This document shows positions 3,360-47,414 of a DNA stretch of 64,000 nt, piece by piece. Where the stretch lies: positions 64,001-128,000 of IMG/VR virus record IMGVR_UViG_3300031418_000005; one strand, 5' to 3'. The DNA comes from a virus. The notes below the pieces were generated by a model, which saw only the letters and a program-made list of their open reading frames with translations, was not told where the DNA came from and ran no database searches. How positions within the stretch are numbered: the stretch's first letter is position 1; each line of letters starts with the position of its first letter. A program made the position numbers and the translations under genes.

Positions 3360-4209
3360 AATTCTCTTCCTCAGTCACGTTGTCATGACCGTAGATGGTT
3401 TTCAGGGCAGCCATCCCCTGTTCCAGAATTGGTAGCGTAGGGTAGCCATCGGTATTGAGCTTCTCTAAGTTCCCCGCGAGTGCCGCGTAGGCATCCTCGT
3501 ACGTATCCGCAGGAATCACCGACAGACCCACGCTGTACATCAGCAGCAGTTCATCTTCCGGGTATTCTTCTTCGTCAAACGTAAAGGATTGTTGCACCAC
3601 TTGCAGGTCAGGTTCCTGAGGCAGGTTCAAGAACACAAACGCTGACGGGTTCTGCGGGAATACGCGCAGGTAAGCCGCGATACGGCCGATACGCAGGTAA
3701 TCGTTATCGCCTTTTTGTTCGTCCAGCGCAGAAGCCGCCAGGTAGTTACGCATCACGGTCATTACCCGTGGGCCAACGCGAACAATCAGGTCTTCGAAGT
3801 GTAGGTTGTTGTCTCCGTACACCAGACGACACATGTTCTCGAGAATGAACTCCGGGGTTTCACCGGACATCACAATTCCGTAGAGACTGTCGCTGTCATC
3901 GAAGTCTTCGAAGGTTTCTAACAATCCGTGCAATATACGCACGGTCTCTTTCGGTTTTTGATACACGATTTGGGGATTCAAGGCCACGCCCAAACGGTTG
4001 CCTAAGGCGACAGCACATTTTACAATGATGCCTTCTAACCGGATGGTTTCATCGGCCGGGTCAGCAGACGGTTCGAAATACACGTCGCTTAAGGCCACAT
4101 CATAACCGTAATCAATACCGAGGGTAACTAAGTCTAGCATCGGCGCTGCCCGGTCTTCGTGGCGGTTGACCGTCAGGACGGCCGCGTAGTCGGTATAAAT
4201 GTCAATCAT
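3346..4209 (-). CDS. Conserved hypothetical protein
   Basis: Likely start MIDIYTD at 4209, because the longer ORF-finder start runs through a terminator. Overlaps the next gene's start. Confidence 0.6.
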   Translation of the reverse strand: MIDIYTDYAAVLTVNRHEDRAAPMLDLVTLGIDYGYDVALSDVYFEPSADPADETIRLEGIIVKCAVALGNRLGVALNPQIVYQKPKETVRILHGLLETFEDFDDSDSLYGIVMSGETPEFILENMCRLVYGDNNLHFEDLIVRVGPRVMTVMRNYLAASALDEQKGDNDYLRIGRIAAYLRVFPQNPSAFVFLNLPQEPDLQVVQQSFTFDEEEYPEDELLLMYSVGLSVIPADTYEDAYAALAGNLEKLNTDGYPTLPILEQGMAALKTIYGHDNVTEEENYEQD

Positions 4210-4282: not shown

Positions 4283-4690
4283 GGTACGACCCTGCATTTC
4301 TTTTTCCAAACCACGCATCTCTTTGTTCTCATCGAGTTGCTGCTGAATATCTTTATTCAAGATAGCCATGCGGCGACGTACCGCTTCCAGCATGATCATA
4401 ATCTGCCAGCGCGGACGGTTGAGAAACTCATCGAACGAGAGACGGAAGTGTTCTCCAATTTGCTCACGTAAGTACGTGGCATACCAGATTTCATACAGAC
4501 TGCCCATTACCGGGTTTTCAAATTCCGACATCCCGATATGGCTTTCACCGGTATCCAGCCCCAGCGTCGCATCGTAGGCTTCCAACAGTTCGTTGTGGGC
4601 TTCTTGATACGTGATGGGGCGGGTACTGCGTTGTTTGAACAGTGAGGTGGTGTCTAGCTTGAGAGTCGTGATTATCTGGTCGGACGGCAC
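4280..4690 (-). CDS. Conserved hypothetical protein
   Basis: 136-aa ORF in an operon with the upstream gene. Confidence 0.6.
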   Translation of the reverse strand: MPSDQIITTLKLDTTSLFKQRSTRPITYQEAHNELLEAYDATLGLDTGESHIGMSEFENPVMGSLYEIWYATYLREQIGEHFRLSFDEFLNRPRWQIMIMLEAVRRRMAILNKDIQQQLDENKEMRGLEKEMQGRT

Positions 4691-39086: not shown

Positions 39087-39165
39087 TCGCGAACACCGTA
39101 CTGGATTCGAACCAGTGAAAAATCCGATTATGGGTCGGGTGCTTTTTCCTCAAGCTAACGGGTTC
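39087..39165 (-). tRNA. Degenerate tRNA-Met/Ile2(CAT), possible pseudo-tRNA
   Basis: The T-arm CACTGG-TTCGAAT-CCAGT is intact and the anticodon loop is CCCATAA (C33). The acceptor stem is bulged and there is no CCA. Confidence 0.6.
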
Positions 39166-39171
39166 ATTGTA

Positions 39172-39247
39172 AGGTCAACGGTTATGGGATTCTAACCCAC
39201 CTGGTCTGTTCGCGAGCACAGTGCATCACAGTTTTGCTTACCGTCGA
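39172..39247 (-). ncRNA. Degenerate tRNA-like RNA (CGC-centred loop)
   Basis: 8-bp acceptor-like stem, short D-arm, CTGT/ACAG arm and a T-like arm GTGGG-TTAGAAT-CCCAT. Ends in ACCT. Confidence 0.5.
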
Positions 39248-39252
39248 TAAAA

Positions 39253-39373
39253 GGGAAGTCACCACCGGACTTGAACCGGTAACCGCACCACTACGCCACC
39301 GCCATTATTGCACCGCGGTGCGTGTTGGTCAGTATTGGTCGTAAGGTGTGCTCTAATCTTGAGCTAGGCGACT
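39253..39373 (-). ncRNA. tRNA-like RNA with a ~45-nt insertion in the anticodon arm
   Basis: Canonical acceptor (AGTCGCC/GGTGACT), D-arm (GCTC/GAGC) and T-arm (ACCGG-TTCAAGT-CCGGT). The anticodon loop is replaced by a long imperfect hairpin. Confidence 0.7.
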
Positions 39374-39380
39374 ATAGATT

Positions 39381-39470
39381 TGGCGGAGAATGAAGGATTC
39401 GAACCTTCGGGCAGCTTGCGCCACCACTCCCTTAGCAGGGGAGCTCTTTCGGCCACTCGGACAATTCTCC
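39381..39470 (-). tRNA. tRNA-Ser(GCT)
   Basis: Class II cloverleaf with loop CTGCTAA, G73 and CCA. Confidence 0.95.
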
Positions 39471-39475
39471 GGAAC

Positions 39476-39553
39476 TGGGGTGTATGGAGAGACTCGAACT
39501 CTCGACCACTGACGTCACAAGCCAGTATTCTAACCAGCTGAACTACATACACC
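39476..39553 (-). tRNA. tRNA-His(GTG)
   Basis: Loop TTGTGAC, G-1:C73 pair and CCA. Confidence 0.95.
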
Positions 39554-39559
39554 ACTAAA

Positions 39560-39640
39560 TGGGGGAACACCCAGGCTTCCACCCAGTCGAGTGGGGACGA
39601 ATCCATCACTCCTGTCATCACTGATGGTGACAATGTTCCC
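39560..39640 (-). ncRNA. CCA-terminated tRNA-like RNA without canonical T/D loops
   Basis: GGGAACA/TGTTCCC stem followed by CCA. Internal hairpins TGTCA/TGACA and CCACTC/GGGTGG. Confidence 0.55.
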
Positions 39641-39647
39641 ATAATGC

Positions 39648-39810: not shown

Positions 39811-39814
39811 ACAA

Positions 39815-39959
39815 TGGGTGACACTTCTCCGAATCCCACGGAGTTATACGGCTGCGCTTAGCGACCCTCTATCCGAGACCCTCAGGCCCAGTAGACGGTG
39901 GATGCTTTTATTGGCTGCCAGACCTCTAAGCTGCTCAAAGGCGGCGAGGGTCAGTGTCA
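39815..39959 (-). ncRNA. 145-nt CCA-terminated tRNA-like RNA
   Basis: TGACACT/AGTGTCA 7-bp acceptor followed by C-CCA. T-arm-shaped CTCCG-7nt-CGGAG and a large internal domain. Confidence 0.6.
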
Positions 39960-39964
39960 TTGTT

Positions 39965-40132: not shown

Positions 40133-40240
40133 AATACGTCTGAGAACTCAACTTCGAATTCGCACACGTCTTGGGTGTTTTACATATATTGGTGCAGTCT
40201 TGTAGCGAAATGGGGAAATCGCTATAAGTCGTTGATTTAT

Positions 40241-40316: not shown

Positions 40317-40322
40317 ATTAAG

Positions 40323-40391
40323 TGGGGTTGATGGACTTCTTCTTCTGAGCCAGAGCAGGACTCCGGTCTTAGCGCCTCCAAGCACCAACCC
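40323..40391 (-). ncRNA. CCA-terminated small structured RNA
   Basis: GGTTGGTG/CATCAACC stem followed by CCA, ending 6 nt before tRNA-Gly. Confidence 0.45.
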
Positions 40392-40534
40392 TACTTACTT
40401 TCTTTTCGTGACGTACCGGCCGTATGAGGTACCGCGCCAACTGCAGCACACTGCTGCTCATTCACACTGGGAACTCAATCCCATCAGTTACATTCAGATT
40501 GTGGGGTGAAGGTTGCCTATGTCAGCGAGTCGGC

Positions 40535-46280: not shown

Positions 46281-47414
46281 TTAAGTTTCCATTGACTGTG
46301 GTGCGGTTTCAGCGTAACACAGCCCAAGTCGTTGCAGACTATAGCCCGTCGCCCCAAATATTTGGGTAGCAACGCTTTCTACGAAAGCCGTGGGGTCTAT
46401 TGCATCTACTGCGAACTCAGACACGAAACGCCAGGTTTCAGTCTTCCCTTTATTTTCGAACTGAGCCGCATACATACCGCGGGATACACCAGGTTCGAAT
46501 TTAAAGAGAGTCTCACCGGACTCCCGCTCCACACCATAAATTACCCCGTCCTTTTGCACGATATCCGCACGGCCGCAACGCGTTACAGTCAAGAGCGCTG
46601 GATTGCTTCCGCCGGGTAAAGGCTTAAAGGGTGTGGGGCCATCGTATGACGCAGGGTAAGAGTCGCCCAGATTATCCAGGGCATAGCTTCGAAAGATTAT
46701 CGAAGACTTATAGTTGCACAGTCGAGTCCCTTCGGTAAACATTGTGTATTCGATCTTAACCTCAGTGCCGATAAGATCATCCGGTCGCACGTTATGGTGT
46801 TTTAGTTGCGACTGAATTCGACGTGAGATCATTGTTGCCAGGAAGGTGTGGCCTGTGGGTGTGCGAACCACATAGCCGTACTCTGTACAGTCAATGATTT
46901 TCCCGGTGGTGTTACGTACCGGTTCAAGTCGGTAATATTCGCCGTTTGCCTCAATGATAAATTGGGACACGGCGTTATTGCGGGATTTCTGTTTGATGAT
47001 ATCAAACACAGCCCCAGCTTTAACCAGAATTGGTTCCACCACGTTAACCTGAAATGGCAAAGGCTTTTGCGGATATTGTCCCATTGTGGTAACGGTGACG
47101 GAACTTAGTTCTGGATCAGATTCACTGGGGTCAGTAGACAGCCAGTGCGTTAGCCAACGTGATAAGGTCTGCGGTATAACGCGGGTCGTGTAAAACAGTA
47201 CCTCGTTTTCGATACCCGCGTCTAAGAGCGTCTTTGCCAGGAATGAGTTTACGGCATCATAATTGCCGTTACGAAGAATAGGCAGTCCACCGATTCGGGT
47301 GAGTTCGCAAATCACCCCGTGTGGCAGAACCCACATCTTCACATCCTGGTCTTGTGAGATTGCTTCGGTACGTAGCGCACGGTGCCACGTCGTTTTACGT
47401 TCATATTTCTTCAT
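46281..47414 (-). CDS. Hypothetical early protein, possibly a degenerate ATP-dependent DNA ligase fold
   Basis: Start MKKYERK with an AAGGAG SD. An OB-domain-like segment DDLIGTEVKIEY is present, but there is no KxDG. Confidence 0.5.
   Translation of the reverse strand: MKKYERKTTWHRALRTEAISQDQDVKMWVLPHGVICELTRIGGLPILRNGNYDAVNSFLAKTLLDAGIENEVLFYTTRVIPQTLSRWLTHWLSTDPSESDPELSSVTVTTMGQYPQKPLPFQVNVVEPILVKAGAVFDIIKQKSRNNAVSQFIIEANGEYYRLEPVRNTTGKIIDCTEYGYVVRTPTGHTFLATMISRRIQSQLKHHNVRPDDLIGTEVKIEYTMFTEGTRLCNYKSSIIFRSYALDNLGDSYPASYDGPTPFKPLPGGSNPALLTVTRCGRADIVQKDGVIYGVERESGETLFKFEPGVSRGMYAAQFENKGKTETWRFVSEFAVDAIDPTAFVESVATQIFGATGYSLQRLGLCYAETAPQSMET

Follow-up and report, generated by a model that had tools for sequence, protein, structure and literature searches.

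A candidate tRNA-Arg(ACG) descendant with a 48-nucleotide anticodon-loop insert in the tRNA island of an Erwinia-type jumbo phage

The tRNA island and the candidate gene

The window analyzed here is a 64,000-nucleotide (nt) stretch comprising bases 64001-128000 of the IMG/VR virus record IMGVR_UViG_3300031418_000005, a complete virus record of 246,337 base pairs (bp), and it contains a gene shaped like a transfer RNA (tRNA) in which a 48-nt insert sits in the anticodon loop. This candidate gene occupies 120 nt of the minus strand, from 39373 to 39254, with a further C at 39253, and lies inside an island of tRNA genes. The reading we put forward, tentatively and with something short of even confidence, is that its product is a processed, unspliced, non-decoding tRNA-shaped RNA. 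The tRNA region is 86% identical to that of the Erwinia phages phiEaH2 and vB_EamM_Stratton (Stratton below) of the genus Erskinevirus, and the phage is a jumbo phage. DNA runs labelled as phyllosphere metagenomes contain nearly all sampled words of its genome.

The island holds 11 tRNAs between 39006 and 43011, each recognized by both ARAGORN and Rfam and all on the minus strand. The candidate begins 7 nt past tRNA-Ser(GCU) (39381-39470, minus strand), its direct upstream neighbor, and ends 2 nt ahead of the next element. The co-oriented RNA island ends downstream of tRNA-Asn at a strong hairpin that resembles an intrinsic terminator by consensus match only (38703-38680, minus strand; 10-bp stem, UUCG loop, T run). 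An encoded CCA is present in 10 of the 11 canonical tRNAs, the exception being a weak tRNA-Met(CAU) (39091-39164, minus strand; 33.7 bits in Rfam), and the candidate likewise has none.

Parts and predicted folds of the candidate RNA

The gene is compared below in three natural variants: the window copy, a form shared by phiEaH2 and Stratton, and a form found in contigs of the sequencing runs X11 and X15. All parts lie on the minus strand, and RNA index is 39374 minus the window position. The acceptor stem has 7 bp, with AGUCGCC (index 1-7, 39367-39373) pairing with GGUGACU (39257-39263) in every fold through one G.U pair; its 5' strand is invariant in the other two forms, and U8-A9 follow it. 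The D-arm (39350-39364), also invariant, can be aligned to the longer one of Escherichia coli argV and joins a 4-bp stem, GCUC/GAGC, to the 7-nt loop AAGAUUA, which contains a single G and so lacks the G18-G19 pair of residues that is near-universal in tRNA D-loops. ARAGORN in intron mode and a frame test described below place the anticodon stem 5' strand ACACC with the loop remnant UU-ACG-A at 39339-39349 (ACG at 39340-39342), and U84 (nt 38 in the ARAGORN frame) with the anticodon stem 3' strand GGUGC at 39285-39290. Between them lies the 48-nt insert (39291-39338), which holds the perfect palindrome GCACCGCGGUGC and whose 3' end, CGUA, pairs with the anticodon. The variable loop GGUU (39281-39284) reads, together with the GC before it, GCGGU as in E. 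coli argV. The T-arm, ACCGG-UUCAAGU-CCGGU (39264-39280), has the canonical G53-C61, U54, U55, C56 and A58 and is invariant in the three variants, and the tail (39253-39256), compared with those of the island tRNAs, is U-CCC with a discriminator U and no CCA.

A sequence-only reading of the locus had described the acceptor, the D-arm, a 5-nt variable loop and the T-arm as textbook and the 3' end as TCCC. The tail is as described, and so are the acceptor stem and the T-arm; the D-arm, with its 7-nt loop and single G, and the variable loop, 4 nt long in the ARAGORN frame, are not. Judged as a canonical tRNA, the gene has an acceptor stem, a D-stem and a T-arm with the conserved T-loop UUCAAGU, and what it lacks is G18-G19 and, at the anticodon, position 26 followed by a 5-bp stem that carries an open loop of 7 nt.

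When the ACG is forced onto the CGU at index 79-81, the RNA folds into a rod at −44.8 kcal/mol. The base of this rod pairs index 26-34 with 79-88, leaving U84 bulged, and is followed by a bulged A35; the middle consists of C36-G78 and C37-G77, then 41-44 with 73-76, then CCA at 46-48 with UGG at 70-72; and the tip is a terminal hairpin. Pairing between the insert and the ACG extends the anticodon stem to a rod of about 22 bp in place of the anticodon loop. The helices proposed from sequence (CACC/GGUG, UACG/CGUA and CCA/UGG) are all in this constrained fold, and the proposed terminal hairpin GCACC-GC-GGTGC is there as well, but as 4 bp closed by a CGCG loop, a 2-nt loop being impossible. The unconstrained minimum for the whole RNA, computed on a 124-nt stretch, is −47.2 kcal/mol (z = −3.3, matched by 1 of 200 shuffles) and pairs differently, with index 41-48 against 84-92 and index 25-40 single-stranded. 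The rod as first described therefore exists, but as one of two near-isoenergetic folds between which the energy parameters do not choose.

The sequence-only reading had also offered an anticodon-less mimic of the tRNA elbow as one explanation. The candidate is not anticodon-less: UU-ACG-A is kept, with the ACG buried in a helix. Its D-loop, its tail and the geometry of its anticodon stem speak against decoding, and to this extent the earlier proposal stands.

Neither the insert nor its 12-nt palindrome has a second copy in the 246-kb genome, on which grounds a mobile-repeat origin was dropped. A reading at the DNA level, in which the insert would be a regulated internal promoter or protein-binding site within a dead tRNA gene, is very improbable. 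It draws on a sigma-70-like site at 39304-39332 (minus strand; CTGACC, a 17-nt spacer and AATAAT, with TG ahead of the second hexamer) whose spacer carries the perfect 12-bp palindrome GCACCGCGGTGC. However, the site scores 9/12, and there are 9 such sites in the region compared with 5.0 ± 2.4 in shuffles; the second hexamer is AACAAT in the X11/X15 form; the pairing of the insert with the anticodon would go unexplained; and phages of this group supply RNA polymerases of their own.

Descent from tRNA-Arg(ACG)

Standard tRNA searches pass over the candidate. The Rfam tRNA model RF00005, with a gathering threshold of 29 bits, gave no match on 39254-39373 even at E values up to 10, and ARAGORN made no call there in its default mode. 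In intron mode, the check that the sequence-only reading had proposed, ARAGORN calls a tRNA-Arg(acg) of 72 nt whose loop, UUACGAU, is interrupted by the 48-nt insert at the canonical 37/38 position; it is the sole additional intron-mode call on either strand of the 246 kb, and it falls in the island. This is how a true split tRNA-Arg(ACG) would look, one in which proteins of the host, or of the phage but not recognized as such, would excise the insert at or near 37/38 and rejoin the halves. We regard that as unlikely, if a serious possibility. The call counts in its favor, as does its being the only one of its kind in the genome, but when the middle 69 nt were shuffled with the acceptor, D-arm and T-arm kept, an intron-mode tRNA call was still made in 132 of 400 cases, and for this reason the ARAGORN anticodon call on its own is weak.

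Gene order and alignment provide better evidence of descent. In E. coli, serV (Ser GCU) is directly followed by argV (Arg ACG), and the phage pair of tRNA-Ser(GCU) and candidate mirrors this arrangement. The phage tRNA-Ser is plainly homologous to serV, and the candidate aligns with argV in the blocks TAGCUCA..AG, (C/U)UACGA, GCGGU and GGUUC.A.UCC. From this comparison, made with E. coli serV-argV only, the candidate gene is identified as a descendant of a tRNA-Arg(ACG) that would have traveled with tRNA-Ser(GCU). The shared order and similarity also suit a tRNA-Arg that is still spliced. A blastn search of E. coli genomes gave no match for the candidate itself.

In the GenBank record of Stratton, the homologue at 4297-4416 is annotated as a 120-nt "tRNA-Ile(aat)", and phiEaH2 is unannotated at this place. 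The "aat" anticodon lies in a loop within the insert and is almost certainly an artefact of the tRNA finder and a database error.

Natural variants and conservation

The phiEaH2 and Stratton copies are one identical 120-mer that differs from the window copy only at index 82-86, by A82G, G83A and one G fewer. The X11/X15 form has an A added between index 25 and 26, along with C28U, U30G, U67C and C89U. Of the eight differences that separate the three variants, seven are in the proximal helix, three of these within 39339-39349, and one is in a loop within the insert; none falls in the acceptor, D-arm or T-arm. All five proximal-helix substitutions retain or form a rod pair: in X11/X15, the C at 39285 becomes U and turns an A.C mismatch into A-U, and the others change C-G to U.G, U-A to U.G, U.G to U-A and U.G83 to G.U84. 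The G lost from 39285-39290 in Stratton and phiEaH2 converts a C-G pair with a bulge into a C.U mismatch. All three variants can adopt the rod fold, at −44.8, −42.4 and −44.0 kcal/mol.

Conservation of the gene is high relative to its surroundings. The candidate and its Stratton homologue are identical at 117 of 120 positions, and at 46 of 48 within the insert; the X11/X15 insert matches that of the window at 47 of 48. Among the neighboring tRNAs, identity with Stratton is 80/90 for Ser, 59/78 for Asp, 61/77 for Ile, 71/86 for Tyr and 77/77 for His. A comparison of homologues had been suggested from the sequence alone, and it shows that the three variants have retained the rod and the tRNA body along with almost all of the insert. 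This pattern appears to favor constraint over decay.

The same data bear on whether the gene is an inert relic, that is, a captured tRNA-Arg killed by a 48-nt insertion and small deletions and since carried, and perhaps processed, within the tRNA operon. Its defects would fit such a history: the D-loop is shortened, CCC stands in place of CCA, position 26 is absent, one stem pair is an A.C mismatch, and Stratton has lost an extra G. The island, a mosaic in which cassettes are gained and lost, would fit it too. The element is also confined to a narrow lineage: when parts of the gene were used as exact patterns, phiEaH2 was the sole match in IMG/VR and neither JGI metagenomes nor GTDB genomes gave any, and a blastn search with the two gene halves against 50,697 phage records returned only phiEaH2 and Stratton besides chance and T-arm matches. 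A relic would not, however, be expected to differ from Stratton at so few positions when the functional tRNA-Ser differs at 10 of 90 and the cluster as a whole is 86% identical, nor to leave the acceptor, D-arm and T-arm unchanged in three lineages while substitutions concentrate in one helix and leave it paired. We consider a relic distinctly unlikely. Literature searches turned up no paper on the candidate gene or on tRNA inserts in Erwinia phages.

The predicted mature anticodon arm and possible routes of insert removal

If the insert were removed, the three variants would yield different anticodon arms. In the window copy, a U33-ACG frame is obtained only with position 26 absent, and then 4 of the 5 stem pairs form. 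Stratton and phiEaH2 reach 3 of 5. The X11/X15 form has position 26 and all 5 pairs, which speaks for a spliced tRNA-Arg, but it carries G32. Each lineage has its own flaw in the mature arm and all keep the rod, and this, combined with the missing G18-G19 and CCA, argues against selection for decoding. Splicing would leave a tRNA with neither G18-G19 nor an encoded CCA, and in the window and Stratton copies without position 26 and a full stem as well, all of which counts against a split tRNA-Arg. So does the insert itself, which is conserved as strongly as the exons.

A group I intron is excluded by size, as the sequence-only reading had argued: the insert has 48 nt where the ribozyme core needs about 200 nt or more, and no Rfam ribozyme or intron family matches it. 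The alternative that the reading had proposed, a short intron handled by a phage endonuclease and ligase, is right about the canonical 37/38 position of the insert but finds neither class of enzyme in the phage. Pfam profiles run on the complete phage gave no RtcB (PF01139) and no tRNA intron endonuclease EndA (PF01974), for both of which the positive controls matched, no Rnl1, Rnl2 or ATP-dependent ligase adenylation domain, and no RNase III (PF00636), CCA-adding enzyme or TROVE/Ro60 (PF05731). Among these results the blank for the profile PF09511 is weak, since its control matched nowhere.

The RNA ligase or RtcB gene that was to be looked for is thus absent by Pfam, and the nearest thing to it is an open reading frame (ORF) at 46281-47414 (minus strand; 377 amino acids, phrog_8136, no Pfam match). 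Its AlphaFold2 (AF2) model, with a mean pLDDT of 82, gave Foldseek top matches to the DNA ligases of Chlorella virus, African swine fever virus (ASFV), T4 and T7 at E values of 2e-6 to 3e-5, and the predicted structure is that of an ATP-dependent DNA ligase fold. An alignment with homologues, which occur in SPN3US-like Erwinia and Salmonella phages, has an invariant LPHG at the proposed motif I site and suggests that the catalytic motif I lysine is missing.

The geometry of the RNA is likewise at odds with the known protein routes. A bulge-helix-bulge site has two 3-nt bulges on opposite strands with a 4-bp helix between them. In the candidate, a 4-bp helix between the anticodon and the 3' end of the insert, from U31-A82 to G34-C79, does lie between the putative cut sites, and this resemblance is a point for splicing. 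The flanks are wrong, however, and in none of the three variants are they two 3-nt bulges: the window copy has a 1x2 internal loop and a 1-nt bulge, X11/X15 a 1-nt bulge and Stratton a C.U mismatch. RNase III cuts with a 2-nt stagger that leaves a 3' overhang. Applied by hand to the rod fold, a cut after index 35 places the partner cut after index 80 and gives a 10-nt loop, and a cut after index 83 or 84 loses the anticodon, so that a staggered cut of this kind yields no 7-nt loop. That the insert is nevertheless an intron, removed by a protein route that is neither bulge-helix-bulge nor ribozyme, either in Enterobacterales or through unrecognized phage genes, appears rather unlikely.

Four sequencing runs were compared as Logan contigs (X11, X13, X14 and X15). 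The X11 and X15 contigs span several genes and contain the gene unspliced; these runs are RNA by guess only and may be DNA. X13, a metatranscriptome, and X14, probably DNA, have only parts of neighboring canonical tRNAs, at low likeness, and leave the candidate uncovered. No skip of 48 nt was seen in the X11 and X15 contigs, although contigs cannot show its absence.

Comparison with known tRNA inserts and tRNA-shaped RNAs

Short inserts in phage tRNA genes were surveyed by a scan of IMG/VR that required an Arg-like D-arm and, downstream of it, a T-loop, with 55-85 nt between the two. It gave at least 119 loci, with 123 frames among the matches listed. A strict test for a mature tRNA (position 26, 5/5 stem pairs, Y32, U33, R37, and an insert after nt 36-38) was passed by 9 of these 123 listed frames, as against 2 of 2460 shuffles, where 0.1 would be expected among 123. 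Judged by their loops, the nine listed frames belong to tRNA-Tyr, Lys, His, Asn and Arg(UCG); their inserts, 29-46 nt long, fold in diverse ways, and some of the frames encode CCA (loci L084, L071 and L035 are examples of the nine). ARAGORN in intron mode called 87 of the listed frames, such calls being individually unreliable, and in default mode it called 1 of these 87 (a tRNA-Asn, L067). Recurrent families appear among the matches listed, including 7 similar "Thr(ggt)" and 6 similar "Val(cac)" frames.

By their sequences, then, phages do have flawless tRNA genes interrupted by short inserts, and because of them a splicing route stays within reach; the strict-test result is accordingly one of the points for a split tRNA-Arg. 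The window copy itself fails the strict test, and its insert has no relative among the at least 119 IMG/VR loci with long tRNA frames.

In archaea and eukaryotes, the tRNA introns that proteins splice out at 37/38 resemble the candidate in that the 3' part of the insert pairs with the anticodon region and a 4-bp helix lies between the putative cuts. The candidate differs from them in its flanks, which are not 3-nt bulges and vary by variant, in the absence of EndA and RtcB from the phage by Pfam, and in its bacterial host.

A closer parallel in position comes from phage T4, whose rnaC and rnaD RNAs are processed like tRNAs. To our knowledge, rnaC has gone unexplained for decades. NC_000866 annotates the two as species 1 and species 2 RNAs, both stable and of unknown function, with lengths of 139 and 119 nt; like the candidate, they lie within a phage tRNA array on the same strand and a few bases apart. 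In the fold of rnaC, a terminal stem and long additional hairpins accompany a canonical T-arm (CCGGG-UUCGAAU-CCCGG), and the candidate likewise has a T-arm and a terminal stem. No remnant of a D-arm or anticodon was identified in rnaC, and the likeness drawn here is one of fold. The fold of rnaD has no tRNA features, unlike that of the candidate.

The YrlA-type Y RNAs are tRNA mimics of bacteria and phages bound by Ro60/Rsr (Chen et al. 2014, PMC4201824). As the parts of that paper used here describe them, they share with the candidate a length of about 100-130 nt, D and T arms like those of a tRNA and a long stem where the decoding arm would be, and they are non-decoding and processed by tRNA enzymes, as we propose for the candidate. 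They end in a long stem with the acceptor closed, whereas the candidate ends in an acceptor. Identification of the candidate as a Y RNA was rejected: RF02553 gave no match on it (and only weak matches on other tRNAs), the Ro60 motif GNCGAA, as given in the portions of PMC4201824 we used, is absent from its sequence, and there is no TROVE gene in the phage by Pfam.

The nearest known class is that of the Lak megaphage tRNAs, which carry conserved introns termed "enigmatic" (Devoto et al. 2019, PMC6784885, here and below as represented in excerpts of that article), and which lend some weight to a split tRNA-Arg. The candidate has the features of this class, namely a tRNA frame, an insert after nt 36-38, no ribozyme and conservation among relatives. 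Like the Lak genes, it exceeds the length that standard finders accept and can be read in intron mode alone, its insert lies in the anticodon loop and is near-identical between related genomes, and neither a ribozyme family match nor, in those excerpts, a mechanism accompanies it (PMC6784885). The Lak phages differ in that they infect Prevotella and have AT-rich genomes of 540 kb that use an alternative genetic code, and one Lak insert may itself encode a tRNA (PMC6784885). The candidate is set apart from the Lak cases, as far as the excerpts portray them, by a 48-nt rod that pairs with the anticodon, by visibly degraded exons and by homologues in two cultivated Erwinia phages (PMC6784885). 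The candidate belongs to a known but unexplained kind, of which this gene is a new member.

A proposed non-decoding RNA on a tRNA body

The proposal of a processed, unspliced, non-decoding RNA can be put in steps. The candidate would be transcribed together with the minus-strand tRNA island, and its intact acceptor/T-arm module would let host RNase P, at the 5' end, and 3' trimming excise and stabilize it. The RNA would then stay unspliced at about 117-121 nt, and its working part would be the rod presented on a tRNA body. Such a rod-tRNA could sequester, as decoy or sponge, some host factor that binds tRNA-Arg or the anticodon arms of tRNAs, a defence nuclease being one example; alternatively, it may serve as a docking site for a phage protein. 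The failure of standard tRNA searches to call the gene counts toward this reading, and so does its setting, with CCA-ended, tRNA-shaped neighbors that lack anticodon loops and, in T4, the comparable rnaC.

Several observations weigh against this proposal. Expression of the RNA and its size are deduced from sequence. In 144 long ORFs of the phage, CGU, CGC and CGA make up 83% of the Arg codons, and a spliced product would be the only tRNA-Arg that the phage has to read them. The changes in X11/X15, where an added A restores position 26 and an A.C mismatch becomes A-U, are what selection for, or repair of, a mature tRNA might be expected to produce, and the flawless exons around similar inserts in other phages argue that some removal route exists. 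The minimum-energy fold is 1.6 to 3.3 kcal/mol better than the rod and is compatible with several of the variant changes. The variants number only three and contain no strict two-sided covariation. The island is a mosaic, with an 81-nt element present or absent and another slot replaced in Stratton, and because of this the high identity of the candidate could stem from recent exchange of cassettes.

The gene is of interest under either outcome. Short non-ribozyme inserts in the anticodon loops of phage tRNAs have been called "enigmatic" since 2019, with no mechanism given in the excerpts drawn on here (PMC6784885), and the IMG/VR matches listed suggest that short inserts in phage tRNA genes are not rare. 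Near-identical genes in two isolated phages (phiEaH2 and Stratton) of a cultivable host, Erwinia amylovora, make the choice decidable at the bench. If the RNA is unspliced, it would be a clear tRNA-Arg-derived case among the poorly understood tRNA-shaped RNAs of phage tRNA islands, and it would point to tRNA bodies being reused as carriers or as decoys against tRNA-cutting host defences. If the insert is a protein-spliced intron, the gene would be a practical entry point to a new bacterial splicing pathway, one that could account for the many short inserts in phage tRNA genes.

Other tRNA-shaped elements of the island

The island also contains further tRNA-shaped elements without anticodon loops, mostly CCA-ended. 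The element next to the candidate (39171-39251, minus strand) is a cassette of 81 nt that resembles a tRNA: CGACGGU/ACCGUUG closes it as a 7-bp terminal stem, GUGGG-UUAGAAU-CCCAU is like a T-arm, and the tail is A-CCU. It is cleanly absent from the X11/X15 relative, and it recurs at 92-99% identity, unannotated, in Erwinia phages of other genera (Kwan, Wellington, pEa_SNUABM_6 and pEa_SNUABM_29).

The weak tRNA-Met(CAU) of the island has a longer relative. In Erwinia phage ChrisDB, the copy of this gene carries about 25 extra bases, with the hairpin GUUACCC-GGC-GGGUAAC, between the anticodon stem and the T-arm; it occupies a gap between tRNA-Ser and tRNA-Asn, at about 3726-3830 of the ChrisDB locus, in which ARAGORN makes no call, and in Stratton and Caitlin the gene is without the extra bases. 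The candidate's insert seemed to have a loose GC-hairpin motif in common with inserts in tRNA-like genes of ChrisDB and Caitlin, an idea that was dropped, the density of the motif being 0.33 per kb in the island and 0.38 per kb genome-wide.

Between tRNA-His and tRNA-Ile lies a cloverleaf-like, CCA-ended element (39553-39647, minus strand) with an 8-bp terminal helix and no tRNA consensus, whose fold is no better than those of shuffles (z = −0.6). In Stratton the slot is taken by a canonical tRNA-Met, and only 34% of aligned columns match. An RNA of about 145 nt at 39811-39964 (minus strand) has a terminal stem, a tail of C-CCA and a T-arm-shaped hairpin, CUCCG-UGGGAUU-CGGAG; it is 79% identical to Stratton overall, with its ends kept and its middle diverged. 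The two "spacers" that flank tRNA-Gly, at 40133-40240 and 40317-40400 (minus strand), are about 91% kept relative to Stratton, above several of the tRNAs, and the first of them folds with z = −3.0; judging by sequence, both are likely to be structured RNAs.

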